Shown: positions 14 through 45,369 of the stretch, piece by piece | Layout of the letters: every line of letters starts with the position of its first letter | How positions within the stretch are numbered: position 1 is the first letter of the stretch | Source: an uncultured Planctomycetia bacterium | GTDB taxonomy: Bacteria; Omnitrophota; Gorgyraeia; VGKN01 | Reading direction: 5' to 3' | Assembly (NCBI GenBank): GCA_964506845.1 | Contig: CAZDNS010000005.1 | Span: 2,975-60,610, forward strand | Length of the DNA: 57,636 nucleotides | Position numbers and translations under genes: made by a program | Notes under the pieces: generated by a model | What the model was told of the DNA's origin: nothing | The model's input: the letters and a program-made list of their open reading frames with translations, nothing else | Database searches by the model: none

Positions 14-141
14 GAGGGGTCGGAGGGTTTTTTATATGTTTCTCCGACCCCTCATCCCGAGCGAAGCGAGGGATCTCAAAGATCCTTCGGACGACCTCAG
101 GATGAACAGTCGGACAGACGAAAAAAACTCCCCGACTGCTC
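14..141. mobile_element. MITE-like element family A, copy 1 (128 bp, GAG...CTC imperfect terminal inverted repeats, 8-bp TSD AAATAAAT)
   Basis: Left end GAGGGGTCGGAGGGTTTTTT versus reverse complement of the right end GAGCAGTCGGGGAGTTTTTT; AAATAAAT at 6-13 and 142-149; core CGACCCCTCATCCCGAGCGAAGCGAGGGATCTCAAAGATCCTTCGG is identical to the copy at 18397-18517. Confidence 0.8.
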
Positions 142-8175: not shown

Positions 8176-9106
8176 AAAACTTTACAGGATAGCCTCCAAA
8201 GAATTGAAAGATATGGAAAACTTCTCAGGCCATTTCTTGTATAAAAAGGTAGAAATGCTGAATATTTTTAATGAGATAATGCCTAAAAGAGACGGCGTAT
8301 TCTTAGAGATTGGATGCGGCAATGGTTTTCAGTCGGCATTACTAAGCTGCTTTGCCAAAAAGCTTGTTGCAAGCGACCTCTATTATTTTGACCCTAAGAC
8401 GCATACTATGGGTATGGCTCTTGCAAGGGGTTTAAACAGGCATCTGGGCAGAAAAAATGTAGAGTTTGTCTCGTGCTCTGCAAATAGGCTACCCTTTAAA
8501 CCCAACTCCTTTGATTTTATCCTTATTAATTCAGCTCTTGAGCATATAGAGGATAAGAAAAAGGTTATGGACGAGATATTTTACGCGCTTTCCCCGGGAG
8601 GTATTGTTGTTGTGGGTGTTCCGAACTTTATGACGGATATTTTTTTATTCTTCCATATGTATTTATATGCCGGAAAGAGGGTGTTCGATATTGTCAGCGA
8701 AAGGGTTTTTAAAAAAAAGATAAAAAAAACCAATATATTTGTAGAAGATCATGATAATTCCACAAGGAGCCTGCCTAATATTTGGTCTGCCTTTAGAAAG
8801 AATTATCCCTCATTCCCATTTCCAATGCCCCACGGAGACTGGAGGAATAGAGCGGGAAACTTATCTCTATTCGAGGAATTCAGAAACTCGTTCCCATGGA
8901 AATGGGAACGCTTGCTTAAGGCTTCAAATCTTCATGTCACAAAAACCTTCGCTCTTCTATTTGTGCCCTTTCCCATCTTTGAGCCTTTTTCAACGAGGCT
9001 TTGGATATGGTTTCATAATTCTATAAAACAAATTCATTTCGCAATATGTGATTCGATGCTGAAGTATTTCTCCGTAACCTACTGTCTTATAGGCAAGAAG
9101 GAATAA
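8153..9106 (+). CDS. Class I SAM-dependent methyltransferase
   Basis: FLEIGCGNG, LPFKPNSFD, LEHI, LSPGG. Confidence 0.85.
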   Translation: MTKFTETEKLYRIASKELKDMENFSGHFLYKKVEMLNIFNEIMPKRDGVFLEIGCGNGFQSALLSCFAKKLVASDLYYFDPKTHTMGMALARGLNRHLGRKNVEFVSCSANRLPFKPNSFDFILINSALEHIEDKKKVMDEIFYALSPGGIVVVGVPNFMTDIFLFFHMYLYAGKRVFDIVSERVFKKKIKKTNIFVEDHDNSTRSLPNIWSAFRKNYPSFPFPMPHGDWRNRAGNLSLFEEFRNSFPWKWERLLKASNLHVTKTFALLFVPFPIFEPFSTRLWIWFHNSIKQIHFAICDSMLKYFSVTYCLIGKKE

Positions 9107-9186
9107 CCGCAAAAGTGCAGAATAACCCTGCCTGCCGGCAGGCAGGCGCAAAGGACGCAAAGAAACTTTTGCGTTTCAGCGGTTGC
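9103..9186. repeat. Repeat family B, copy 1 (84 bp; TAACCGC...GCGGTTG ends; internal 20-bp palindrome CCTGCCTGCCGGCAGGCAGG at 9127-9146)
   Basis: Closely similar copies at 21091-21174 and 44153-44237. Confidence 0.85.
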
Positions 9187-9198
9187 AAAGGAGACGCC

Positions 9199-10227
9199 AT
9201 GAAAAAGAAAAAATCACCCCTTAACGTTGGTATAATTGGTTGTGGTTACTGGGGCCCGAATCTGGTAAGGAATTTTAGCGCTGTAGATAATTGTTTCGTA
9301 AAGTATTGTTGCGATCTGGATTCTGACCGTCTTGAATACATGCAGAAACTGTATCCCTTTTTAAAGGTAACCAAAGAATACGAGAGGGTAATCGAGGATG
9401 CGTCTATTGATTCGGTTGTAATTGCTACCCCTGTTTCAACGCATTTCCCGATAGCCCTGAAAGCCCTTGAAGCTGGAAAAAATGTATGGCTTGAAAAGCC
9501 TATGACCGCAAGTGTAAAAGAAGCCCAGATTTTGCTTAAAGAGGCCGAGAAACGCAAATGTTTAATATTTGTAGACCATACCTTCATATACACAGGCGCT
9601 ATAAGAAAGATTAAAGAGATAATAAAGAGCAATGCCCTTGGAAGGATTTTATATTTTGACTCTGTTCGTATAAACCTCGGGCTTTTTCAGCATGATGTCA
9701 ATGTAGTGTGGGACCTTGCCCCTCATGATTTATCCGTTATGGATTATCTATTGGAGAAAACCCCCGTAGGAATCCATGCTACTGGTGTGGGCCATTACAA
9801 TAATGATATAGAGAATATAGCATACTTAAGTTTAAAATTTGATAACGATATGCTGGCGCATTTTCACTTTAACTGGCTCGCCCCTGTAAAAATACGCCGG
9901 ATATTAATATGCGGAAGCGAGAAGATGATTTTATATAATGACACAGAACCCAGCGAAAAGGTAAAGATATTTGACAAAGGGGTCACGGTAAACGAGAAAA
10001 AGAGGGAAAGTTTATATCAAACCCTGGTAAGCTATCGCACAGGGGATGTCTACTCTCCCAAGCTCGATACCAAAGAAGCCCTTAGCTTTGCCTGCGAGCA
10101 TTTTGTGGAGTGTGTAAGCTTGCGAAAGCGCCCTATAACCGACGGCTATGCCGGCCTGAGAGTGGTCAGGATGATAGAGGCTTCTCAGCGCTCTATCAAG
10201 AAAAAAGAACACTGGGAGCCGATATGA
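9199..10227 (+). CDS. Gfo/Idh/MocA oxidoreductase (sugar dehydrogenase)
   Basis: [20 protein letters not shown]; AAGGAG RBS before ATG 9199. Confidence 0.9.
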
Positions 10228-12055: not shown

Positions 12056-13263
12056 AGATACACCTCTATGGCAATAATGCCAATATGGCTTTTAACTTCT
12101 GCAGGTTTCTCCGCAGGCTGAATATAGAAGCCTGTGTATATGTGGACAGCTTTCCGCTTGTAAGGAGCGACCTTCCTGAATGGGAATTACCACAGGAGAG
12201 CCGCTCGGAATGGGTAAGATATGTGGATGTGTCAGTAAAGGGCCTGCTTAGATTGAGAAAAAAAGAAAGAACGTTTTTGAGCGAACTTAAGGAATGCGAC
12301 CTTATACATTCTTTCGGAGAGGCCTCGATGCTTACCCAGTTCGCAAACAGGCCGTATCTGCACTGGACCTACGGCTACGATTTGGATAACATCCCTTTTA
12401 AGAACGGCTCTCCCAAGCATATAATACTTGCAGGTATTCAGAGGAAGGCGCTAAAGAAGGCGGGTCTGGTCATTTATTCAATGCCGCACCAGAGAGAATC
12501 GGTTGAGAAATTGCGTCTAACTAATGCCCTTTATTTCCCATTTATTCCTATTGAGACAGAAAGATATAGAAAAGTAGATGAGGGTTCTGTAGAGAATATC
12601 CGCAAGAAGTATAACTGTGATTTTTTATTTGCCCATCTGGCGCGTCAGGAATGGGTAAGAAACGAACCTGGCCAGCAGAACAAGGGAAACGATAAGTTAT
12701 TCCGGGCGTTTGCCCGTTTCGTGAAATCGGACAAGGTTAATGCCATTATGCTGGTTGCCGAAAAGGGAAGGGATGTCTTAGAGAGCAAGCGCCTGATAAC
12801 GGAGCTGGGGATTGAGGCTAACGTGGAGTGGATTCCTTCGCTACCCAAAGATGAACTCATCAGGCTCTTAAGCGCTGTGGATATCGTATTTGACCAGTTC
12901 AATGCCGGCTCAGCCGGTCTTTTGGTGCTGGAATCTATGTCAATGGAAATACCCACCTTTATCTATTTTAGCAGGGAATATACGTCATTTTTCAAGGAGC
13001 CGCCGCCTGTCATAAATGTATTTACAGAAGAGGAAATTTATAATAAAATTATAGAATTATGTAAAAATAAGGAAAGAGGCGCCCATATAGGGCATTTGGA
13101 AAGGGAATGGGTAAAAAAATACTTTAACTGGGATATCGTAACCAAGCAGTTTATCAGGTGTTATGAAGATATATTAGGAGGTCAAATGAAGACGCAGTTT
13201 ACGGAACGAACCCATTCGACTTTGCTCAGGGTTCGTCCTGAGTGTAATCGAAGGACGAAGTGA
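12052..13263 (+). CDS. Glycosyltransferase (GT4/GT-B); last ~25 aa come from the adjacent repeat
   Basis: DIVFDQF...GLLVLESMSMEIP; tail MKTQFTERTH... reads through the element arm. Confidence 0.8.
   Translation: MKIHLYGNNANMAFNFCRFLRRLNIEACVYVDSFPLVRSDLPEWELPQESRSEWVRYVDVSVKGLLRLRKKERTFLSELKECDLIHSFGEASMLTQFANRPYLHWTYGYDLDNIPFKNGSPKHIILAGIQRKALKKAGLVIYSMPHQRESVEKLRLTNALYFPFIPIETERYRKVDEGSVENIRKKYNCDFLFAHLARQEWVRNEPGQQNKGNDKLFRAFARFVKSDKVNAIMLVAEKGRDVLESKRLITELGIEANVEWIPSLPKDELIRLLSAVDIVFDQFNAGSAGLLVLESMSMEIPTFIYFSREYTSFFKEPPPVINVFTEEEIYNKIIELCKNKERGAHIGHLEREWVKKYFNWDIVTKQFIRCYEDILGGQMKTQFTERTHSTLLRVRPECNRRTK
13211..13254. repeat. REP-like palindrome nested in the loop of the family C left arm
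   Basis: TTCGA..TGCTCAGG / CCTGAGTG..TCGAA pairing; flanked by ACGAA at 13206-13210 and 13255-13259; absent from the other arms. Confidence 0.65.
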
Positions 13264-13304
13264 ACGTAAATTGCATGTCTGAATTTGACCCTTGACATTT
13301 TGCA

Positions 13305-13607
13305 ATGAATCAAATTTATTATGCTTATATCTTACAGTGTAATAATAACACTAAATACTATGGTCATATGAATAATTTGATAGAGCGCATTAAAGATCAT
13401 ATAAGAGGTCGTGTTTGTTCTACAAGAAATAAACAACCAGAATTGGTTTATTATGAGGAATTCAATTCATGTTCACAGGCGTTTAAACGTGAGATGCAGT
13501 TTAAGAATGGAAAAACTCGTAGGACCACTATAGAAAAATTGATAAGATCGTTTCCGAAGGAAAAATGTCAAGGGTTCAATTCACAGACACTTCGTTATAA
13601 TCCTTGA
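13305..13607 (+). CDS. Small stand-alone GIY-YIG nuclease (YhbQ/UPF0213-like)
   Basis: YAYIL..YYG..NNL.ER...H..G...T...P.LVYYE.F....A.KRE...K. Confidence 0.85.
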   Translation: MNQIYYAYILQCNNNTKYYGHMNNLIERIKDHIRGRVCSTRNKQPELVYYEEFNSCSQAFKREMQFKNGKTRRTTIEKLIRSFPKEKCQGFNSQTLRYNP

Positions 13608-13649
13608 CAGGCTTGTCAAGGATTATCTGCTCATTGAAGGAGGTAATAA

Positions 13650-14420
13650 ATGCAGTGCGTCATACTCTGCGGCGGTTTAGGCACAAGGCTAAGGGAAGAA
13701 ACTGAATATCATCCCAAACCCCTTGTTAAGATAGGCAATATGCCGATACTGTGGCATATAATGAAGATTTACTCCCACTATGGGATTAAAGAATTTATCC
13801 TTTCTCTGGGTTACAAGGGAGAGATGATAAAAGAGTTTTTTGTAAACTATAAGTATTTTCACAACGATTTCTCCCTGAATCTAAAGACGCATAAGGCGAA
13901 TATTATGTCCGACGGCGAGAAGATAGAAAACTGGAATATTGTATTTGCCGATACCGGGATAGAGACCTCTACCGGAGGCAGGATTACGCGTGTAAAGAAA
14001 TATACGAAGGATAATGAGCCCCTTTTTCTGGCTACATACGGGGATGGCGTGGCAAACGTAAATATCAGAAAACTAATAGAATTTCACAGGAGAAATAATA
14101 AGATAGCCACGCTTACCGCTGTTCATCCGGTTTCTAAGTATGGGGTAATAGAAATAAAAGGCAGTCTTGCAAGGAGTTTTGCCCAGAAGCCGAGCTTAGA
14201 GGGTTATATTAATGGCGGTTTTTTTGTCTTTAAAAAAGATGTTTTTGATTACCTCGACGATGAGATGATGTTAGAAGATGTGTTTCCCCTGCTTGCTAAG
14301 GAAAACCAGCTCGCGGTTTATCAGCATAATGATTTCTGGCACTGTATGGATACCTATAAGGATTATCAGGTTTTAAACAAGATGTGGGAAACCGGAAAGG
14401 CTGAATGGAAGATATGGTGA
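13650..14420 (+). CDS. rfbF: Glucose-1-phosphate cytidylyltransferase
   Basis: [45 protein letters not shown]. Confidence 0.92.
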
Positions 14421-15403
14421 AAAAAAATAATTTCTGGCATAACAGGAATGTACTCGTAACCGGATGCACCGGCTTGCTCGGCTCCTGGCTTACGAAAAAC
14501 CTCGTTGAAAAAAGGGCTAACGTTATAGGGTTAATCCGCGATTGGGTACCCCGGTCCAATTTATTCACTATGGAGCTCTTTAACCGCATAACCACTGTAA
14601 GAGGAGAGGTGGAGGATGAAGTTCTTTTAGAAAGGATAATAAACGAATACGAGATAGAAACGGTTTTTCATCTAGCAGCCCAGACTATCGTAGGTATAGC
14701 CAATAATAACCCTGTATCCACATTCCGCACAAACATAATGGGCACCTGTAATATCCTCGAGGCAAGCCGAAGAAATAATAGGGTAAAACAAATTGTTATT
14801 GCCTCAAGCGATAAGGCATACGGTGAATGCCCGAACCTTCCATACGATGAGCAAACCCCTCTAAAGGGTACGCACCCTTATGATGTATCAAAGAGTTGCG
14901 CAGACCTTCTGAGTGTGTCTTACTTTAAGACATACCGCCTGCCTGTCTGCGTAACGCGCTGCGGGAATTTCTTCGGTGGAGGAGATTTGAATTTTAACCG
15001 GCTTATCCCCGGCACTATCCGCTCCGCCCTCTTGGGTGAAAGGCCTATTATAAGAAGCGACGGCACCTGCATACGCGATTATTTTTATATAAAGGACGCT
15101 GCCAACGCATATATGTATCTGGCAGAGAAGATGAACGAGATAGATATAGCCGGCCAGGCGTTTAACTTCGGAAATGAGGTAAGAGTAAGCGTCCTTGATA
15201 TGGCAAGGAAGGTCTTAAAACTTATGAAGAAGGAGCACCTCAAGCCCGTTATTCTGAACGAGGCGGATTGCGAAATTCAAAATCAATACCTCTCTTCTAA
15301 AAAGGCAAGGGAGATCCTTAAATGGAAACCCCTGTATTCTCTGGACGAGGGTTTGAAGGAGACTATAGAGTGGTATAAAGAATTTTTTCAAATGAAGACG
15401 TGA
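14414..15403 (+). CDS. rfbG: CDP-glucose 4,6-dehydratase-like SDR
   Basis: [41 protein letters not shown]; follows rfbF. Confidence 0.8.
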
Positions 15404-15574
15404 CTTATGGAACAAAGTGAACATAAGTCACTGTCTGAATTTGACCCTTGACATTTTACCTTAGAAAAGTTGCATCCATAACAAAATGTCAAGGGTTTAA
15501 TTCGCACCAGCAAAGAGGTTAAACAAAGAAGATTGATACTTGACATTAAAAAATGTCAAGTATCAAGCGCTCAT
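15392..15574. mobile_element. Family C element, copy 2: no nuclease gene (putative non-autonomous)
   Basis: Same ATGAAG...GCTCAT ends and same inner IR as copy 1 (15437-15457 / 15483-15503), enclosing only 25 bp. Confidence 0.75.
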
Positions 15575-15590
15575 TAAAGGAGAAAAACCT

Positions 15591-16046
15591 ATGATACAAG
15601 GGGTCAAAATAAAAGATCTAAAACAGATACCGGATGAACGGGGCAGGATAGGCCATATGCTGCGAGAGGATGATGAGGTTTTTGAGAGGTTCGGCGAGAT
15701 ATATTTTTCATACTGCTATCAGGGAGTCGTTAAAGGATGGCACTATCATAAGAAGCAAAAGGATAATTTCGCTGTTATTAAGGGTATGATGAAGGTGGTG
15801 CTTTATGACCCGCGCGAAAATAGTCCTACGAAAGGCGAGATTATGGAGATTTTTATAGGGGAACACAACCCAAAACTCATTACTATACCTGAGAATGTAA
15901 TTCACGGCTTTAAGGCTATAGGAAACGAATACGCCATCCTCGCTAACTGCGCTACCTATCCCTACAACTATCAGAACCCCGACGAGTATCGCATAGACCC
16001 CTTCAAAAACGATATCCCCTATGACTGGAACATAAAACAGGGTTGA
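15591..16046 (+). CDS. RmlC-family NDP-4-keto-6-deoxysugar epimerase (cupin)
   Basis: DERG, KGWHYHKKQ, YDPRENSPT, HGF; AAGGAG RBS. Confidence 0.88.
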   Translation: MIQGVKIKDLKQIPDERGRIGHMLREDDEVFERFGEIYFSYCYQGVVKGWHYHKKQKDNFAVIKGMMKVVLYDPRENSPTKGEIMEIFIGEHNPKLITIPENVIHGFKAIGNEYAILANCATYPYNYQNPDEYRIDPFKNDIPYDWNIKQG

Positions 16047-16077
16047 CGTTGATGAATTTTTCAGACCCTGTTTTATG
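16031..16077. repeat. 13-bp perfect inverted repeat overlapping the stop of the RmlC-like gene
   Basis: CATAAAACAGGGT (16031-16043) / ACCCTGTTTTATG (16065-16077). Confidence 0.6.
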
Positions 16078-16139
16078 ACCGATATAACTTGTAGAACAGA
16101 GGGTATATTTTATGCATATCAAAAAAGAAACACAATAGA

Positions 16140-17084: not shown

Positions 17085-18531
17085 GGATAAGAAGGTAGTT
17101 ATTGTTGGTGCAGGGATATCCGGCCTGACCATCGGCAGCATCCTTACCGACAATGGTATTAAGGTGACTATACTTGAAAAGGAAAAGGAGGTAGGGGGCC
17201 TTGCCAGAAGCGTTAAATACGACGGTTTTACGTTCGATTTTGGCCCGCACTGCATATTTGAGAACCAGGGAAAGGCAGGTAAATTTATAAAAGAGCTCCT
17301 GAAGGACGAACTCTTAGTTGTGCCTAAAAAGACAGGTGTTTTTCTAATGGAAAAATATTACAACTGGCCGTTAAATCCAGAGGTAATTATAAAGCTGCCC
17401 TGGAGGGTTAAGTTTAATGCCCTGTTCGATTTCTTTTACAGGAAAAGATATGAGGGAAATTCTTTAAGGGAATATCTTTTAAACAGATACGGGAAAACCC
17501 TTTACCGGATAGACTTTGAGCCCTATACGAAGAAATTTCTGGATATAGACCCTTTAAACCTTGACCCGGACTGGATGAAAATCGGAATTATAAGAGCAGG
17601 CGCAGGAGAGAAATTAAAAATGGGTTCGCTCTGGCAGGTATTTTTCTCTTTATTCAGAAAAAAGGCCGAATTCTTCACATATCCCAGGGGCGGCTCTATC
17701 CGGTTTCCGCTTGCGCTGGCAGGACAGATTTCTGATGCAGGCAGCCAGATAATAAGGGAGGCGGAGGTTACGGGCATCGAGTCTAATTCCGATAAAATTA
17801 CCTCTATTCAAACCCCAAATGGTAAATTTTATGCAGACCATTTTGTATGGACAGCGCCTCTCACCATTCTGGAGAAACTACTTTTTAAAAATACCGAAAT
17901 TGCAAACGGCTTAGATTATATATCTATGATATTTTATAATATGGAGATAAATGGAAAGATACCCTCTGAATACAGATGGTGTTATTTTGTGGATACGAAT
18001 ATATTCTTTCCGCGCTTAAGTATTTCCACTCTTTTTAGCCCGGCGAATTCTCCTGAGGGCAAAACCAGCCTTACGGTGGAAGTTACCTGCAAAAGGGATG
18101 CCGAGATATGGAACGCTCCGCAGAAATATCAGGATAAGATTATCGAAGACCTTAAAAGGGTGGGCGTCATAAAGGAGAGAGCGCAAGTAGAAAGGATATA
18201 CATAGAAAAAATAGAATACGCCTATCCTGTTTATCGTCTCGGATACAGGGAGGAGTTGGCCAGACTTGAAAATAGGCTTAAGGCTTATACAAATCTTACC
18301 CTTTCAGGCAGGCAGGGGACGTTCTGGTATTGCAATATGGACCATTGCGTGGAGCAGGGGATTGATATTGCCAATAACCTCATTAAGGAATTAAATGAGG
18401 GGTCAGGGAATTTTCCACGACCCCTCATCCCGAGCGAAGCGAGGGATCTCAAAGATCCTTCGGCCTTACGGCCTCAGGATGAGCCCTCGATAAATATAAA
18501 AAACTCCCCGAGAGCTCAATTAAATGAATAA
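17065..18531 (+). CDS. FAD-dependent oxidoreductase (HemY/Glf-like fold) with a 43-aa repeat-derived C-terminal insertion
   Basis: IVGAGISG, VGGLARS..FDFGPH, YAYPVY, GRQGTF.Y.NMDH. Confidence 0.85.
   Translation: MNSEQIRDKKVVIVGAGISGLTIGSILTDNGIKVTILEKEKEVGGLARSVKYDGFTFDFGPHCIFENQGKAGKFIKELLKDELLVVPKKTGVFLMEKYYNWPLNPEVIIKLPWRVKFNALFDFFYRKRYEGNSLREYLLNRYGKTLYRIDFEPYTKKFLDIDPLNLDPDWMKIGIIRAGAGEKLKMGSLWQVFFSLFRKKAEFFTYPRGGSIRFPLALAGQISDAGSQIIREAEVTGIESNSDKITSIQTPNGKFYADHFVWTAPLTILEKLLFKNTEIANGLDYISMIFYNMEINGKIPSEYRWCYFVDTNIFFPRLSISTLFSPANSPEGKTSLTVEVTCKRDAEIWNAPQKYQDKIIEDLKRVGVIKERAQVERIYIEKIEYAYPVYRLGYREELARLENRLKAYTNLTLSGRQGTFWYCNMDHCVEQGIDIANNLIKELNEGSGNFPRPLIPSEARDLKDPSALRPQDEPSINIKNSPRAQLNE
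18397..18517. mobile_element. MITE-like element family A, copy 2 (121 bp, 8-bp TSD AATTAAAT)
   Basis: AATTAAAT at 18389-18396 and 18518-18525; GAG...CTC ends; core shared with 14-141. Confidence 0.8.
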
Positions 18532-20148: not shown

Positions 20149-21183
20149 ATGCGGTTACTGCTGGCAGGGGCTTCGGGTTTTATCGGGAAAAATCTTATTT
20201 TAAAGGCTCCCTCAGAATGGGAGATTACGGGTATTTATTTTAAAAGTACAAACTTTTTGGATTTCCTTGCTTCAGGCGGCATAAAAAATGTACAGCCTTT
20301 GCAATGCGACCTCACTAGCGAAGAAGAGGTTGCCATAAAATTTGAAAAGGTTAAAACAGAGTTTGATGCGGCTATTTTTTTAGTGGGAAATTCAGATATA
20401 GGTCTTTCGGTTAGAGACCCCATTTTCGACCTAAGGGCAAATCTGATAAGCCTGATTAATCTTCTAAACAATATAAAAGCATCAAGGTTCATTTTTATGT
20501 CCTCCGGCACGGTTTATTTAGGGCGTTCTGGGCAGGTATCTCCGCAAACCGCAGTCAGCGTGGATTTACCCTACGGCATTACTAAGTTATCCTCCGAACT
20601 TTACATAAAGTATTTCTGCAACAGGAGAAAAAATATCGGCGAGTATGCAATCCTCAGGTTTTTCGGCACATACGGGCCTATGGAGCCTTCCCGCAAGATA
20701 TATACAAACCTAATTAAAGAGTTATATTTTAACAACAAGGAAGAGTATCTCCTAAGGGGAGACGGCAAAAATCTCATAGATGCTATGTATATAACCGATG
20801 CAACCCAGGGCCTTTTTAAAGTTTTGACATCTGAAAGAAAAGGAAGTATAACCCTTGATTTTTGCAGGGGCGAGCCGATTACAGTTAACGAGCTTGTAGA
20901 GCGCGTAGCAAAAATCCTGGGCAGAAAGGTTAAAATTAAACATACCAACGAAACAAGCGAATATATAACATTTTATTCCTCACCTGATAAGATGGCACAT
21001 AAATTTGGATTTCGACCGAGAATTACACTTAAAGAAGGTATCTTGAACTTTTTAGATTATATGAAAACCAGCCAACCCTTTATGAAAGGAGTAACCGCCA
21101 AAGCGCAGAATATCCCTGCCTGCCGGCAGGCAGGCGCAAAGAACGCAAAGAAATTTTTGTGTTTTAGCGGTTACAAAGGATAA
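20149..21183 (+). CDS. NAD-dependent epimerase/dehydratase with a 30-aa repeat-derived C-terminal extension
   Basis: AGASGFIG, SSGTVY, YGITK. Confidence 0.85.
   Translation: MRLLLAGASGFIGKNLILKAPSEWEITGIYFKSTNFLDFLASGGIKNVQPLQCDLTSEEEVAIKFEKVKTEFDAAIFLVGNSDIGLSVRDPIFDLRANLISLINLLNNIKASRFIFMSSGTVYLGRSGQVSPQTAVSVDLPYGITKLSSELYIKYFCNRRKNIGEYAILRFFGTYGPMEPSRKIYTNLIKELYFNNKEEYLLRGDGKNLIDAMYITDATQGLFKVLTSERKGSITLDFCRGEPITVNELVERVAKILGRKVKIKHTNETSEYITFYSSPDKMAHKFGFRPRITLKEGILNFLDYMKTSQPFMKGVTAKAQNIPACRQAGAKNAKKFLCFSGYKG
21091..21174. repeat. Repeat family B, copy 2 (84 bp; perfect GTAACCGC/GCGGTTAC ends; AAAGGA direct repeats)
   Basis: AAAGGA at 21085-21090 and 21175-21180; internal CCTGCCTGCCGGCAGGCAGG. 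Confidence 0.85.
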
Positions 21184-21186
21184 GAT

Positions 21187-22434
21187 ATGGAACTACTCGC
21201 AATAAGCGGAGGAAAACCAGTCAGGCAGAAGGAATTTACCAAATGGCCCATCTACGATAAGCGGGAAGAAGAAAACCTCATAGGTGTTTTGTATAAGAGC
21301 AAATGGGGAATCGGAAAGCGCACAGGCGTGATAAATGAATTTGAAGAAAAATTTTCCGGTTACCACAACAGGCGGTTCGGCATATCTAATACCAATTGCA
21401 GTCATTCGTTAGAGATAGTTCTTGCAGCAAACGGCATAGGAGCCGGCGACGAGGTTATAGTGCCTTCCTACACCTTTATTGCAACCGCAAGCGCGGTTTG
21501 TCAGGTAGGAGCAGTGCCGATATTTACAGATGTTAATGCGTCGGATTATTGCCTAAACCCTGATTCGGTTGAGTCCTTAATCTCGGATAAAACAAGGGCG
21601 ATTATTGCGGTTCATTTCGCAGGTCATTTTGCGGATATGCTGAGGCTTTCCGAAATCGCTAAAAAAAATAATCTGCTGTTGATAGAAGATGCTGCGCAGG
21701 CTCACGGAGCAAAATGGAACGGTGATTTTCCGGGCAAGATGAGCGTTGCCGCCACTTTTAGTTTCCAATACAGTAAAAATATGACTGCAGGCGAAGGCGG
21801 GATAATCCTTACTGATTCAAACCAGCTGGCAGACGCCTACTGGGAATATATATGGCACGGCAGAAAAAAACAAGGCCTGTGGTATGAGCACTTCAGAACC
21901 AGCTCGAACTATCGTATGACCGAATGGCAGGCAGCAGTACTTCTGGCACAACTTGAAAAATTGCCAGAACAGAACCGCATAAGAGACCTAAACGGAAGAT
22001 TTCTGGATGAAGAGCTAGCGAAGATCAGCGGGGTAGAACCCTTAAGGGTTGACCCTTTAACAAATATTCATCCAAGGCACCTCTATATATTTAAATTGAC
22101 GGATAAAGAGATACCCAAGGAAATTTTTATCAAGGCGTTAAATGCAGAGGGAATACCCGCTTTGCCAGGATACGGCTTTCCCCTGTATAAAAATCCCGCC
22201 TTTCTTAACAAAAAATTCGGTTCGAAAAGTTGTCAGTTAAAATGCAGAATCTACAACAAGGAAATAGATTATACCGGGGTCTATAATGAAAATGCGGAAA
22301 AAGCCTGCAAAGAATGTATATGGATTTTGCATAATGTGTTATTGGGACAAAGAGAAGATATGAAGGATATAGTTGCCGCCATAAAAAAGGTGTTAGAAAA
22401 TAAACGGGAGCTTTTATCCGCTACAGATGGATAA
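21187..22434 (+). CDS. DegT/DnrJ/EryC1/StrS aminotransferase (BtrR/RifK-like signature)
   Basis: LAISGGKPVR..WP, GDEVIVPSYTFIATA, IEDAAQAHGA, FSFQYSKNMTAGEGG, NYRMTEWQAA. Confidence 0.9.
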   Translation: MELLAISGGKPVRQKEFTKWPIYDKREEENLIGVLYKSKWGIGKRTGVINEFEEKFSGYHNRRFGISNTNCSHSLEIVLAANGIGAGDEVIVPSYTFIATASAVCQVGAVPIFTDVNASDYCLNPDSVESLISDKTRAIIAVHFAGHFADMLRLSEIAKKNNLLLIEDAAQAHGAKWNGDFPGKMSVAATFSFQYSKNMTAGEGGIILTDSNQLADAYWEYIWHGRKKQGLWYEHFRTSSNYRMTEWQAAVLLAQLEKLPEQNRIRDLNGRFLDEELAKISGVEPLRVDPLTNIHPRHLYIFKLTDKEIPKEIFIKALNAEGIPALPGYGFPLYKNPAFLNKKFGSKSCQLKCRIYNKEIDYTGVYNENAEKACKECIWILHNVLLGQREDMKDIVAAIKKVLENKRELLSATDG

Positions 22435-35036: not shown

Positions 35037-36485
35037 ATGAAGGTACTAATTTTAAATCCCGTTAGCAAATTTACAAAAAATGTAGTGCGGGACGTCTTAT
35101 ACGGCTGCTGGTGCAAGGGAAAACGCATAGGCGGGGCCACAGTTCCGCCGTTCGGGCTGCTTGTGGTTGCAACTGTGTTAAAAAATGATGGAAATGAAGT
35201 GGTTTTTTTGGATGCCCAGGCGGAACAATTGGGCATAGAAAAGCTAAAATCTATTATAGTGAATTTTGAAGTTGTAGTTATCTCTACCTCTACTATGAGC
35301 TACCGGGAAGATGCAGCAGTGCTTTTAGAATTAAAAAGGGCTAATCCAACATTAAAAACAGTGATTTTCGGCTCTCATCCTACGTTCTTACCCCATTCTG
35401 CGCTTGGAAATAAGGGCGTGGATATAATTGTGCGAAGGGAGCCGGAATATATCATAAGGGATTTAATCAGGGAAATAATAAAGGGTGACTCTTCGTGGAA
35501 AAGGGTTATGGGGATAGGTTTTAAGGAGGGCAGGGAATGTGTTATAAATGAATACTATCCCTTTATTGAGAATCTGGATGAACTTCCCTATCTGGATACT
35601 TCTCTTTTACCAGAAGGTATAGACTATTTTAATCCGATAGTAAAGCGCTTGCCCTATATCACCACCTCTACTTCAAGGGGATGCCCGGGAAGATGCACCT
35701 TCTGCACAGCACCTGCCTTTGACGGGATGAGGCTGCGTTATCAGTCAAGCGATTATGTCCTTGGCCAGATAGAGGAATTTTTAAAAAGAGGCTTCAAAGA
35801 AATCTATTTTAGAGACGATACCTTTCTTGTGGATAAAGCCAGAGACATAAAGATATGCAGGGGTATTATAGAAAGGGGATATGATGTTTCCTGGATTTGC
35901 AATGTAAGAATAGGGATGATAGATAAACAGATGTTAGAATTGATAAAGGAGGCAGGTTGCCATCTTATTAAAACAGGCGTTGAGAGCGGCGTTCAGGAGA
36001 TACTCGATAGGGTCAAAAAGGGAATAAGAATAGAGCAGACCAGAGAGGTTTTTAGATGGGCTAAAGAAGCGGGAATTGATACGCATGCCCATGTGATGCT
36101 TGGAATGCCGGGCGAGACAGAGGATACCCTAAAACGCACTGTTGATTTTGTGCTTGAGATTGCGCCTACAACTGCTACGTTTGGGATATGCACACCCTAT
36201 CCGGGAACGCCCCTTTTTGAGGAGGTGGCTGAACTTTCTCCGGACTTAAAAGATGGAACAGACTCAGATTTTAGCAAACTGCATACCGTAGGGTTGTTTA
36301 ACGAATGTTATACCAGTCTTGATAAACTAAAACTGGAAAAGGCAGTCAGGTTCGCCTATAGAAGGTTTTACTGGCGCTTTCCTTATCTTTTAGAGATGCT
36401 TTCCAAGATAGACGGGATAAGGGATTTTAAAAAATTTGCTATCGCAGGATTAAATGTATTTGATTTTGCCCTGCAAGGAGATTAA
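35037..36485 (+). CDS. B12-binding radical SAM protein
   Basis: GSHPT, SRGCPGRCTFC, GVESG, LGMPGET, PYPGT. Confidence 0.9.
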   Translation: MKVLILNPVSKFTKNVVRDVLYGCWCKGKRIGGATVPPFGLLVVATVLKNDGNEVVFLDAQAEQLGIEKLKSIIVNFEVVVISTSTMSYREDAAVLLELKRANPTLKTVIFGSHPTFLPHSALGNKGVDIIVRREPEYIIRDLIREIIKGDSSWKRVMGIGFKEGRECVINEYYPFIENLDELPYLDTSLLPEGIDYFNPIVKRLPYITTSTSRGCPGRCTFCTAPAFDGMRLRYQSSDYVLGQIEEFLKRGFKEIYFRDDTFLVDKARDIKICRGIIERGYDVSWICNVRIGMIDKQMLELIKEAGCHLIKTGVESGVQEILDRVKKGIRIEQTREVFRWAKEAGIDTHAHVMLGMPGETEDTLKRTVDFVLEIAPTTATFGICTPYPGTPLFEEVAELSPDLKDGTDSDFSKLHTVGLFNECYTSLDKLKLEKAVRFAYRRFYWRFPYLLEMLSKIDGIRDFKKFAIAGLNVFDFALQGD

Positions 36486-36855
36486 ATGAAGCCACAACTT
36501 AGCGAGCGTTAGTGAAGCTAAGTTGTTTGGCTGAATTTAACCCAGCACTAATTTTATGTATTTTGTTTATCTTCTGAAAAATGAGATAACCAACGAACTT
36601 TATTATGGGTATACAAATGACTTAGAACGGCGCTTAAAAGAGCGTAATCTAAATGCGAAATGGAAACTCATATATTACGAAGCATTTGCTTCAGACTTGG
36701 ATGCCAGAGAAAGAGAAAGAAAATTGAAAGATTATGGTCAATCAAGAAATCATCTTAAAAATCGTCTTAAAAGGTCATTACAATTATAAAATTAGTGCTG
36801 GGTCCAATTCGCACAGCAACTTATGTTCACTTTGTTCCATAAGTTGCGTGCTCAT
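36486..36855. mobile_element. Family C element, copy 3: second GIY-YIG gene enclosed by structured inverted repeats
   Basis: ATGAAG...GCTCAT ends; perfect 18-bp inner IR ACCCAGCACTAATTTTAT (36540-36557) / ATAAAATTAGTGCTGGGT (36786-36803); hairpins in both arms. Confidence 0.8.
36556..36789 (+). CDS. Small stand-alone GIY-YIG nuclease
   Basis: YFVYLL...LYYGYTNDLERRL...WKLIYYEAF....DARERERKLK. Confidence 0.88.
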   Translation: MYFVYLLKNEITNELYYGYTNDLERRLKERNLNAKWKLIYYEAFASDLDARERERKLKDYGQSRNHLKNRLKRSLQL

Positions 36856-36867
36856 AGGAGAATAAAA

Positions 36868-37737
36868 ATGCAAAAAACGAATATGGTATCGGTAATCTTA
36901 CCTGCCTGCAATGAGGAAAAGAGCATAGGAAGACTTATTAAGGAGATAAAGGCTATAAATGCGGATTTTGAGGTTATAGTGGTAGATGATGGCTCTTCTG
37001 ATAATACTTCAGAAGCTGCCAAAAGCCATGGCGCAATTGTCATAAGACACCCTTACAATATTGGCAATGGTGCAGCGGTAAAAAGCGGGGTGCGCTATGC
37101 AAAGGGGGACGTGGTAATATTGATGGATGCAGATGGCCAGCATCTTGCAGGCGATATACCGAAATTACTCAATGCTATGGATGGTTTTGATATGGTTGTA
37201 GGGGCAAGAACAGCTCTTTCTGATCTTTCAGGGTATCGCACCCTCGGTAATAAAATCCTGACGAAGGTAGCAGAGTTTTTATCCGGGCATAGAATACCTG
37301 ACCTTACCTCTGGCTTCCGTGCCATAAGAAAGGAAAAATTAGAGGAGTTTTTGCATCTATTCCCGAACAGATATTCCTATCCTACAACCATAACCCTTGC
37401 TATGCTTAAATCAGGATATTTTGTTAAGTATCTTCCGCTTGATTCAATAGGCCGAAGAAAGGAAGGAGAAAGTAAACTGCAGCCCATAAGGGATGGCCTC
37501 AGGTTTATACATATAATACTGAGGATTATAATGCTTTTTGATCCTCAGAAAATTTTCATACCAGCTAGCGTGTTTTTCTTTATTATTGGATGTATTATTG
37601 GGGTACATTCACTTATTGTATCCGGAAAGATAATCCAGTCCGCAGCCCTATTTATAGTAATATCAACCTTCATCTTTTTCTTTGGTCTAATCGCAGAGCA
37701 AATCGCTGCCATAAGGCGGGAGTTGAATGAGAGATAA
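36868..37737 (+). CDS. GT2 glycosyltransferase (DPM1/GtrB-like) with two C-terminal TM helices
   Basis: VILPACNEE, VVDDGSSD, MDADGQH, DLTSGFRA; AGGAG RBS before ATG 36868. Confidence 0.9.
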   Translation: MQKTNMVSVILPACNEEKSIGRLIKEIKAINADFEVIVVDDGSSDNTSEAAKSHGAIVIRHPYNIGNGAAVKSGVRYAKGDVVILMDADGQHLAGDIPKLLNAMDGFDMVVGARTALSDLSGYRTLGNKILTKVAEFLSGHRIPDLTSGFRAIRKEKLEEFLHLFPNRYSYPTTITLAMLKSGYFVKYLPLDSIGRRKEGESKLQPIRDGLRFIHIILRIIMLFDPQKIFIPASVFFFIIGCIIGVHSLIVSGKIIQSAALFIVISTFIFFFGLIAEQIAAIRRELNER

Positions 37738-44124: not shown

Positions 44125-44152
44125 AAAAAGCAGTTTAACTATATAAAAAGGA

Positions 44153-44237
44153 GTAACCGCCAAAGCGCAAAATATCCCTGCCTGCCTGCCGGCAGGCGCA
44201 AAGGCGCAAATAAAGACTTCTGCGTTTCAGCGGTTGC
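44153..44237. repeat. Repeat family B, copy 3 (85 bp; AAAAGGA direct repeats)
   Basis: AAAAGGA at 44146-44152 and 44238-44244; internal variant CCTGCCTGCCTGCCGGCAGG. Confidence 0.85.
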
Positions 44238-44253
44238 AAAAGGAGGAGTTATT

Positions 44254-45369
44254 ATGAAGATTTTGCAGAAATATAAGAATACCTTAATTGTATTTTTGTT
44301 GTTTATTAGCATTGTAGTAAATATGATAGTATATTCGAAATTGTCGGAGATTTCGTTAATTTATACTAACTATTTTACAGCGGAAGAAAATAATTTTTCG
44401 AAAGCGCCCTTTTTAGTAGAACTTTATGACAATGTATACGGTTATGTCTTATTCCGTAGAATTGGCAAACAGTTAGTCAAGGGATTGGTTGATGACAAAG
44501 ATAAAATAGTTGCTGTTTCTAATTGGGTTTTTAATAATATACTTCAGAAAGAACTTGTCCACTCCGCAGATTTCGGTCCATATCTTGATATTCCTATCAT
44601 TGACGATAATTTCCTGAATGTTGTTCGGAGGGGTTACGGATACTGCGACCAGAGTTCCTATGTATTATGCACAATGATGCATTGGCTGGGATTTAAGTCA
44701 AAAATGCTTATGCTGAGGAATGAAACAGGAGAATCTCCGCATACCGTAGCAGTTGTTATAACAAATGGAAGAGAATATATTATAGATACAACTCTTCACT
44801 TTATTTTCTTTGATGATAATGGTGAGCCAATATCTATCGGAGGAATAAAGAACCACCCTGAGTTATTCAAGAGATATAAAGAGATGGTGAACAGGCTCGC
44901 CTTAAGAAAGGGTGAGGCTCCGGTTGATATTAAACCGGAATGGTTTGAAAATGGTAAATTTTTTGAGACCTTTCCATTTTGCAGCAAGGCATATCTATTA
45001 AAAAAGATTAAAGAAAAATTAGGCGGGTCTTTTGTAAATTTAATTGTACCGTCTGCTTTCGCAAGCGAAACTCCATTTCCTTTTTATCACCCTGTTTATA
45101 TAATCAGGTCTTATGATAAGGCAAGAATTAACTGTTTGTTGGGAGATTTAGAAAAAGCACTAAAAATTTTGAACAGTGTAAAAATTAACAAAGATAATAA
45201 GGCTTATATTCACTTCTTGTTTGAGAAAGGGTATATCTTGTACAAACTTAAGCGTTATCAAGAAGCAAAAGAATACTTCGAAGAGGTTCTCGCTTTAGCG
45301 AAACCTCACTTTTTAAAAAATGGTGCGCATTATTTTTTAAAAAAGATTAACGAATCTAAATCGCCATAA
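44254..45369 (+). CDS. Membrane-anchored transglutaminase-like protein with C-terminal TPR
   Basis: GYCDQSS...PHTV...IIDTT; KGYILYKLKRYQEAKEYFEEVL. Confidence 0.75.
   Translation: MKILQKYKNTLIVFLLFISIVVNMIVYSKLSEISLIYTNYFTAEENNFSKAPFLVELYDNVYGYVLFRRIGKQLVKGLVDDKDKIVAVSNWVFNNILQKELVHSADFGPYLDIPIIDDNFLNVVRRGYGYCDQSSYVLCTMMHWLGFKSKMLMLRNETGESPHTVAVVITNGREYIIDTTLHFIFFDDNGEPISIGGIKNHPELFKRYKEMVNRLALRKGEAPVDIKPEWFENGKFFETFPFCSKAYLLKKIKEKLGGSFVNLIVPSAFASETPFPFYHPVYIIRSYDKARINCLLGDLEKALKILNSVKINKDNKAYIHFLFEKGYILYKLKRYQEAKEYFEEVLALAKPHFLKNGAHYFLKKINESKSP

Follow-up and report, generated by a model that had tools for sequence, protein, structure and literature searches.

A three-hairpin intergenic repeat with covarying arms that can enclose a GIY-YIG nuclease gene in Candidatus Omnitrophota

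The stretch of DNA analysed here, a window of 57,636 nucleotides (nt), belongs to a 2.05-Mb genome (G000; 88% complete) of the phylum Candidatus Omnitrophota and carries three copies of a repeated element that lies between genes and is composed of a tail arm, a central hairpin starting with CCC and ending with GGG, and an inverted head arm. Each arm is a hairpin of about 65 nt with three stems, a GA/GA internal loop and a conserved purine-rich loop, and its stems vary in sequence while remaining paired. Copies 1 and 3 each have, within the central hairpin's loop, an open reading frame (ORF) for a GIY-YIG nuclease, of 100 and 77 amino acids (aa), respectively. A preliminary description of the window, drawn from its letters alone, had singled out two of the arms as a covarying motif; it did not recognise that the motif terminates a larger element, made up of three hairpins and able to carry a GIY-YIG gene. 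The parts of the three copies are as follows (R1 denotes a covariance model of the arm).

13182 to 13288, plus strand: tail arm of copy 1; R1 match at window 13172-13302 (G000:C5:16146-16276), 69.6 bits
13305 to 13607, plus strand: nuclease ORF of copy 1, 100 aa; PF01541, E 5.5e-09, 36.6 bits against a cut-off of 22.6
13575 to 13637, minus strand: head arm of copy 1, a variant; no R1 match; ends in ...TCATTGA
15388 to 15444, plus strand: tail arm of copy 2 (the arm of the preliminary description plus the outer stem; alignment row L018), which folds; R1 match at window 15378-15458 (G000:C5:18352-18432), 93.2 bits; stem 3 pairs 15388-15393 with 15439-15444, then come the GA/GA loop, stem 2, stem 1 and a 12-nt loop
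15445 to 15495, plus strand: central CCC...GGG hairpin of copy 2, a 13-nt inverted repeat around a 25-nt remnant (I2/I3, D7)
15496 to 15578, minus strand: head arm of copy 2, a variant that keeps stems 3 and 2, with inner stem and loop swapped for another hairpin; no R1 match
15577 to 15582, plus strand: ribosome-binding site AAGGAG of the downstream gene, whose ATG is at 15591
36482 to 36540, plus strand: tail arm of copy 3; fold of -24.6 kcal/mol, z -6.08; R1 match at 36472-36554, 74.2 bits
36556 to 36789, plus strand: nuclease ORF of copy 3, 77 aa; PF01541, E 1.9e-10
36803 to 36855, minus strand: head arm of copy 3 (the second arm of the preliminary description); R1 match at 36789-36869, 84.9 bits

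The ORF of copy 1 lies between inner inverted repeats at 13289-13301 and 13562-13574 (I3/D7), the right one of which is entered by its 3' end, and the head end of this copy sits directly 5' of the ribosome-binding site AGGAGG (13638-13643) of a gene starting at 13650. In copy 3, the tail arm has other stem letters and the same architecture, with the TAA of the upstream gene (36483-36485) inside the outer stem; the ORF is enclosed by inner inverted repeats at 36541-36557 and 36786-36802 (I11: 25 nt, 92% complementary), and the head arm is followed by the ribosome-binding site AGGAGA (36856-36861) and an ATG at 36868. Copy 2 has no nuclease ORF, yet both ORF ends are kept, including a remnant of the C-terminus: a remnant ORF at 15448-15522 has KCQGFNS in common with the ORF of copy 1. 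As the C-terminal residues of the copy-1 nuclease are still encoded there, copy 2 derives from a longer copy by deletion. Terminal inverted repeats are present (I1, I2, I3 and I11, and the element listing), and the genome as a whole contains 43 convergent arm pairs spanning 105-382 nt. The stem of the central hairpin varies by type yet stays complementary, and the best pairs of copies in the genome are 90-94% identical, with the likeness stopping about 8-14 nt outside the arms. A promoter in the TTGACA type of central hairpin was considered; the motif is missing from the other central hairpin types.

From the outside inwards, the arm consists of an outer stem of 6 bp, a symmetric internal loop with GA/GA (TGA...GAA), a stem of 4 bp, a bulge of 1-2 nt, a stem of 10 bp and a 12-nt loop with the consensus GGAACRAAGTGAAC; CCC comes next. 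Three alignments document its conservation. The first holds the first 60 of 74 arms filtered for length and completeness, drawn from 167 nhmmer matches in the genome; 95.8% of its cells are paired, compared with 77.2% in column shuffles and 21-35% with slid partners, both sides have changed in 14 of the 20 pairs, and TGA 5' and GAA 3' of stem 2 are fixed. The second, with 43 arms whose loci come from 23 other genome records, is 96.8% paired, with double changes in 17 of 20 pairs. The third contains 124 arms from 75 of 80 further loci and is 95.6% paired; double changes occur in 18 of 20 pairs and fill 576 cells, against 160 in shuffles, and up to 4-6 standard pair types are found per position. 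The search pattern used to choose its loci prescribes part of the inner stem, so that nothing can be learned from the three innermost A-T pairs of this set. Across all three, pairing of 95.6-96.8% compares with 73-77% after shuffling and 21-38% with slid partners, although the cell counts overstate the number of events because the copies are related (effective sequence number 3.03 for the 60 arms) and the shuffle control leaves kinship among copies out of account.

These last two points, together with the grouping of the copies in the genome into subfamilies with common stems, are what an explanation of the covariation as a by-product would draw on, according to which complementarity is restored mechanically, for instance through templated repair or conversion that acts inside one hairpin or from arm to arm, and the changes mark a few much-copied subfamilies. 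Such an origin appears very improbable, given that pair types multiply in independent genomes, that the loop and the GA letters stay fixed while the stems vary, and that the two arms of one element differ in their stems, each being internally paired, which argues against simple arm-to-arm copying.

When the two arms compared in the preliminary description are read directly from the window (15392-15447 on the plus strand; 36800-36855 as its reverse complement), 9 of their 56 positions differ (arm positions 5, 6, 10, 11, 38, 39, 44, 45 and 51). As it stated, eight of the nine form four compensatory pairs, and all four are paired in the minimum-free-energy fold: 5/45 changes from A-T to G-C, 6/44 from G-C to C-G, 10/39 from T-A to C-G and 11/38 from G-C to A-T. 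The ninth, T51G, is unpaired within the 56-mer and lies in the outer stem, which that description lacked; its partner is the base 3 nt upstream of the arm start (alignment columns 13/76), and as this base has changed too (A versus C), all nine differences are compensatory. The same pair of arms is returned by the repeat finder as I1 (63 nt, 81% complementary). Their RNA folds reach -24.4 and -24.0 kcal/mol (z -5.66 and -5.49; 0 of 200 shuffles as good), and their DNA folds -14.7 and -14.2 kcal/mol (z -5.78 and -5.31); over the arms folded, z ranges from -5.5 to -6.1 with RNA and from -5.2 to -5.8 with DNA parameters. The further stems quoted for other arms are located at 13196-13205/13265-13274 and 36496-36504/36518-36526. 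The proposal that the structure is conserved is strongly supported by the much larger alignments within and beyond the genome: with a covariance model built and homologues collected, the double changes persist (14-18 of 20 pairs). Comparison with Rfam assigns the motif to no family; at gathering scores the window has no match, and at relaxed thresholds it yields miRNA- and snoRNA-type chance matches only (E of at least 0.075; 17-25 bits against gathering scores of 40-144). A small leader ORF starting from the arm's ATG was rejected as coding, its frames stopping at differing places or at once (M-K-T-stop in copy 2).

Smaller repeats are nested within some arms. The loop region of the copy-1 arm includes a palindromic insert of about 50 nt (approximately 13208-13258), which stands before the loop motif in 6 of the genome's arms, copy 1 included; contigs of other copies skip 13208/13210-13258/13259, which is exactly this insert. 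A second module, a GC-rich palindrome of about 20 nt of the CCTGCC...GGCAGG type, is found inside arm loops at C8:7733, C23:6399, C39:12014, C1:43565, C51:10242, C119:355 and C130:2659 of G000.

The element is abundant and widely distributed. In G000, R1 gives 134 matches, and the 167 nhmmer arms are divided between the strands (81 plus, 86 minus). A survey of the class found the arm in 33 of 41 genomes, with 0 to 77 matches in each, counted under stricter filters, and a survey of the phylum in 74 of 121, both surveys including G000; copy number among relatives ranges from 0 to 134. Among the 80 exact matches to the loop motif that were listed, 60 are in records titled Omnitrophota or Omnitrophica, and the other 20 in records named Planctomycetia or Planctomycetales (16), 'bacterium' (3) and Ratteibacteria (1). 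The nearest relatives of the nuclease are also in assemblies titled Candidatus Omnitrophota or Omnitrophica, and viral contigs contain no exact match to the loop motif. One locus in a record titled Candidatus Babeliaceae (L083) has a whole arm-nuclease-arm element, for which a binning or labelling error or a transfer is possible.

The position of the element relative to genes is strict. Its tail end is in or just past the 3' end of the preceding gene and supplies stop codons: upstream frames terminate at a TAA that precedes ATGA, at the TGA that ATGA contains, or as far as about 36 nt into the arm, so that stops are supplied in all frames. Its head end precedes the next gene's ribosome-binding site or start by 0-10 nt, and in 27 of 29 pairs (those of the 43 convergent pairs with both 5' ends recognisable) GGAG follows within 12 nt. 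Of the 167 arms, 140 could be evaluated. A ribosome-binding site, a start codon and an ORF of 60 aa or more lie ahead of 57 of the 73 arms beginning with ATGAG, but only 2 of the 58 that begin with ATGAA; of these 58, 33 are instead preceded by an ORF of 80 or more codons whose stop is no more than 60 nt away. The same layout between genes recurs in other genomes, where ATGAA and ATGAG fail as the tail and head markers that they are in G000. Three arms begin immediately at the 3' end of a tRNA gene and lie on its strand (L203 3306-3435, tRNA-Glu; L213 1866-2008, tRNA-Gly; L218 1452-1599, tRNA-Pro).

This fixed place and direction between a gene end and the next ribosome-binding site, the overlap of the outer stem with the AGGA of the ribosome-binding site in one arm type, and the conservation across the phylum would also suit RNA hairpins selected by the host in operon transcripts, where they might work as stabilisers between cistrons, mark processing sites or regulate translational coupling, with repetition reflecting the recruitment or spread of a useful module. 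Such a role seems quite improbable as the main explanation. The head arms are antisense in the operon transcript, yet they keep the loop, the GA/GA motif and the stems in their own 5'-to-3' sense, like the tail arms, so that the two arms of an element fold best on opposite strands; with RNA parameters, the own sense folds better in 96 of 103 arms. In stems 1 and 2, G.U exceeds A.C by 23 to 11 in head arms, read in their own sense rather than that of the mRNA, and by 23 to 14 in tail arms, which speaks against selection on one transcript, even if the counts are small and the copies related. The range of copy number among relatives, the arms next to tRNA genes and a related strain in which the gene pair around copy 2 is intact and overlapping fit poorly with an RNA-level function as well. 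We infer that the folding takes place in DNA. The preliminary description had favoured a DNA-level recognition element on the grounds that the motif occurs in both orientations; this is true of the arm only, because the whole element has a fixed direction relative to the flanking genes. A DNA-level element is still favoured, by the sense of the arms, the excess of G.U in both arm classes and the empty site described below, which fall short of proof.

Direct evidence for insertion comes from contigs of four public sequencing runs aligned to window positions 12900-16100. In run X6, from another study, one 2837-nt contig of a related strain covers 14040-15381 and continues unbroken at 15573, with 255 nt on the shorter side of the joint. 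It has many single-nucleotide differences from the window, and none of those listed (there are 353 further ones) falls at the joint. The segment concerned is the following.

15382 to 15572, plus strand: missing from the X6 contig; 191 nt comprising copy 2 and a few nucleotides upstream of it; joint movable by up to 3 nt (ATT)

Since the contig is cleanly without copy 2, this copy is an insertion, and the ribosome-binding site and start of the downstream gene, being present in the contig, are host DNA. In the empty allele, written in window letters, the upstream frame runs six codons further, through the ribosome-binding site to a TGA that overlaps the next ATG; the insertion has therefore exchanged the six final codons of the upstream gene for six that the element encodes. 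At the head junction of copy 2, at least 3 host-derived nucleotides form the outer strand of stem 3, and over 102 head arms the same stem-3 positions are about 90% paired, with three pair types. This one empty site suggests that the target may be chosen by base pairing with the inner strand of the outer stem of the head arm. Around copy 1, contigs of runs X4 and X5 have 132 nt in place of 13062-13637 (copy 1 and the gene end) and resume their likeness to the window exactly at the ribosome-binding site, 13638. A DNA search for orthologous empty sites in the family relatives G001-G003 matched only arms, the flanking genes being too diverged.

The nuclease ORFs of both window copies match PF01541 above the cut-off. 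By sequence, the nearest solved relatives are the UPF0213 proteins BH0048 (E 2.4e-07) and EF2693 (E 6.6e-05), and matches to homing-endonuclease families are weak. The predicted structure (mean predicted local distance difference test score, pLDDT, 82.6) has one alpha/beta domain and a C-terminal helix; Foldseek aligns it with UPF0213 proteins, Slx1, the catalytic domain of I-TevI and At-HIGLE at template modelling (TM) scores of 0.53-0.66 on the query, with weak E values of 0.009-0.3, all above 0.001. The location of the gene between arms is recurrent: the arm-ORF-arm layout, in the same register and with proteins 55-71% identical, is present in at least 12 other genome records. Among 80 loci of these closest homologues from other records, arms adjoin both ends in 4, and among relatives, arms adjoin the ORF or lie within about 30 nt of it in 6 of 29 loci (the best one per genome) and in 2 of 20 others. 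All eight relatives with an arm-flanked nuclease carry at least 13 arms, an association that is partly circular and is not counted as evidence. At L176 (G037:C1:239840-243085, about 1420-1760), a GIY-YIG ORF is bracketed by direct repeats of about 27 nt that resemble the 5' half of a tRNA, and ARAGORN detects no intact tRNA at this repeat site.

Taken together, these findings are best explained by a mobile element of the type of repetitive extragenic palindromic (REP) doublets (REPINs) or of MITEs (miniature transposable elements with inverted repeats), which pervades Candidatus Omnitrophota and whose arms are recognised as folded DNA, a reading to which we give a probability of roughly 55%. 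According to this proposal, the arms would act as DNA hairpins or cruciform arms that are recognised by their shape and by a few fixed letters, namely the TGA...GAA internal loop and the loop GGAACRAAGTGAAC, and because recognition would be by shape, the stem letters would be free to change as long as they remain paired. Elements are inserted in one direction, with the tail at a gene end and the head before the next ribosome-binding site, and base pairing with the inner strand of the outer stem of the head arm would select the target. For the enzyme that mobilises the elements in trans, the leading candidate, at less than even odds, is the GIY-YIG nuclease.

A number of observations weigh against this proposal or parts of it. 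A clean empty site has been seen once, and no transposition, excision product or cleavage has been seen. Target-site duplication is not consistent: the 29 pairs have no common direct repeat, and the ambiguity of the joint is 3 nt. An AGGAG-type direct repeat was rejected as a general rule of target duplication, as it accompanies copies 1 and 3 and two further pairs only and is missing in most of the 29 and at the empty site. The strand argument is weak because, with DNA parameters, both strands of an arm fold almost equally well, the own and opposite strands differing by just 0.6-1.1 kcal/mol; a difference this small is compatible with cruciforms. A fixed orientation relative to genes would be expected from an RNA-level role too. 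As to the nuclease, 41 of 49 tested small GIY-YIG loci of relatives lack arms, small GIY-YIG ORFs are present in 40 of the 41 class genomes, and the arm-rich drafts G019, G021, G033 and G036 have an arm-flanked nuclease at 0 of 4, 0 of 3, 0 of 5 and 0 of 2 loci tested. Some nuclease ORFs have the CCC...GGG repeat alone (L169, L171 and L172), one of them in genome G015, which has no arm match, and no bacterial GIY-YIG enzyme is known to act as a transposase.

Because of the ORFs with the CCC...GGG repeat alone, the nuclease may be a passenger, that is, a homing-type, free-standing selfish gene nested in the central hairpin of the same mobile palindrome, whose arms would be moved by a host function or by another enzyme, such as a Y1/HUH transposase working on hairpins of single-stranded DNA as in IS200/IS605 or in REPs with their associated tyrosine transposases (RAYTs). 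The armless loci and the weak matches to homing-endonuclease families are in keeping with this account, as are the host-derived nucleotides at the head junction of copy 2, whose complementarity to the inner strand recalls the guide-target pairing of IS200/IS605. G000 also encodes four Y1_Tnp (PF01797) ORFs of 223-319 aa (C35:3632-3961, C23:14506-14838, C17:3917-4252 and C79:7430-7756). However, these are bracketed by their own inverted repeats of 12-16 nt of the GGGACA type, with no R1 arm adjoining, and may constitute a separate REP/RAYT-like system. The recurrence of the arm-ORF-arm layout in one register argues against a passenger, as does the size of the ORFs, which at 77-100 aa are without the separate DNA-binding domain typical of homing GIY-YIG enzymes, and on balance this account is somewhat unlikely. 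At the other extreme, the element could represent a new class of bacterial transposon, in which the covarying DNA hairpins at the ends would be recognised not by a DDE, HUH, serine or tyrosine enzyme but by a GIY-YIG nuclease of minimal, Slx1-like form, while a head guide of 3-4 nt would pair with the letters upstream of the ribosome-binding site and thereby allow one-way homing to junctions between a stop codon and a ribosome-binding site and persistence across the phylum. In this full form the idea is speculative and we regard it as unlikely.

If the proposed mobile element with its nuclease is real, it would provide hairpin-based mobile repeats of bacteria with a new enzyme partner, REPs and REPINs having so far been paired with Y1 transposases, and it would offer a testable substrate for UPF0213, a very widespread nuclease family. 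As the elements are located in operons of genomes that are small and gene-dense, alter the final codons of upstream genes and abut ribosome-binding sites, they bear on annotation and on breaks in metagenome assembly in Omnitrophota, and possibly on operon expression. In addition, the conserved loop is a simple sequence marker for the phylum. Searches of the literature turned up no published description of the element, no work linking GIY-YIG genes with REP-, REPIN- or MITE-type repeats in bacteria and none on repeats in Omnitrophota; papers beyond the literature searched may hold such accounts.

Other repeats occur in the window and the genome. A 52-nt repeat containing a GC-rich hairpin is found at window 39-90 and 18412-18463 (96% identical; D5, D19, I4), with an inverted partner nearby (9-42 versus 18489-18522), and is unrelated to the element. 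Direct repeats of 107 nt at 9098-9204, 21086-21192 and 44148-44254 (87% and 63% identity; D1, D2), located in or at the ends of ORFs of a sugar-modification cluster, are probably paralogous gene segments. The 12-mer TAACGGGGTGAA is present at 10 places in G000 (for example C2:25023, C9:3226 and C42:11537), often after GAGGTC or GGAGGTC, and may be a conserved translation-start context or leader.

Among known systems, the REP/REPIN-RAYT repeats of Pseudomonas and enterobacteria resemble the element in several respects: short hairpin units in high copy number form inverted pairs separated by a spacer and also flank one small gene of the nuclease type, stems that vary stand next to a few invariant letters, and the repeats are intergenic and persist over a large clade. 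REP hairpins have a GTAG (or CGTC) tag at their 5' foot. This tag is absent from the 60 Omnitrophota arms, which have TGA...GAA and the loop as fixed letters instead, are longer (about 65 nt, with three stems) and flank a GIY-YIG gene rather than a Y1/HUH one (RAYT). A strict direction relative to genes and a place beside the ribosome-binding site are not known as traits of REPINs. MITEs and mosaic repeats such as Correia, ERIC, BIME and RPE are alike in their size of 100-400 bp, their terminal inverted repeats, their status as non-coding derivatives of longer copies, their nested or mosaic modules and their insertion at gene ends, which extends the upstream frame. Unlike MITEs, the Omnitrophota element has neither a DDE transposase relative nor a consistent target duplication that could be found, its longer copies encode a GIY-YIG ORF only and no transposase, and each of its terminal repeats is itself a conserved, covarying hairpin.

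In IS200/IS605 elements (IS608, ISDra2), the end hairpins, both on one strand, are recognised as folded single strands by a Y1 transposase. Hairpin ends, a possible guide-target pairing and oriented insertion with no clear duplication would be shared features; unlike in IS200/IS605, the arms of the Omnitrophota element are inverted, and no Y1 ORF lies between them. Integron attC sites, recombination sites at gene ends that are defined by their structure, were considered too. The nuclease itself shares the GIY-YIG catalytic domain with UPF0213/Slx1-type and homing GIY-YIG enzymes, from which it differs in being just 77-100 aa long, in having no zinc finger or DNA-binding extension and in being embedded in a repeat.

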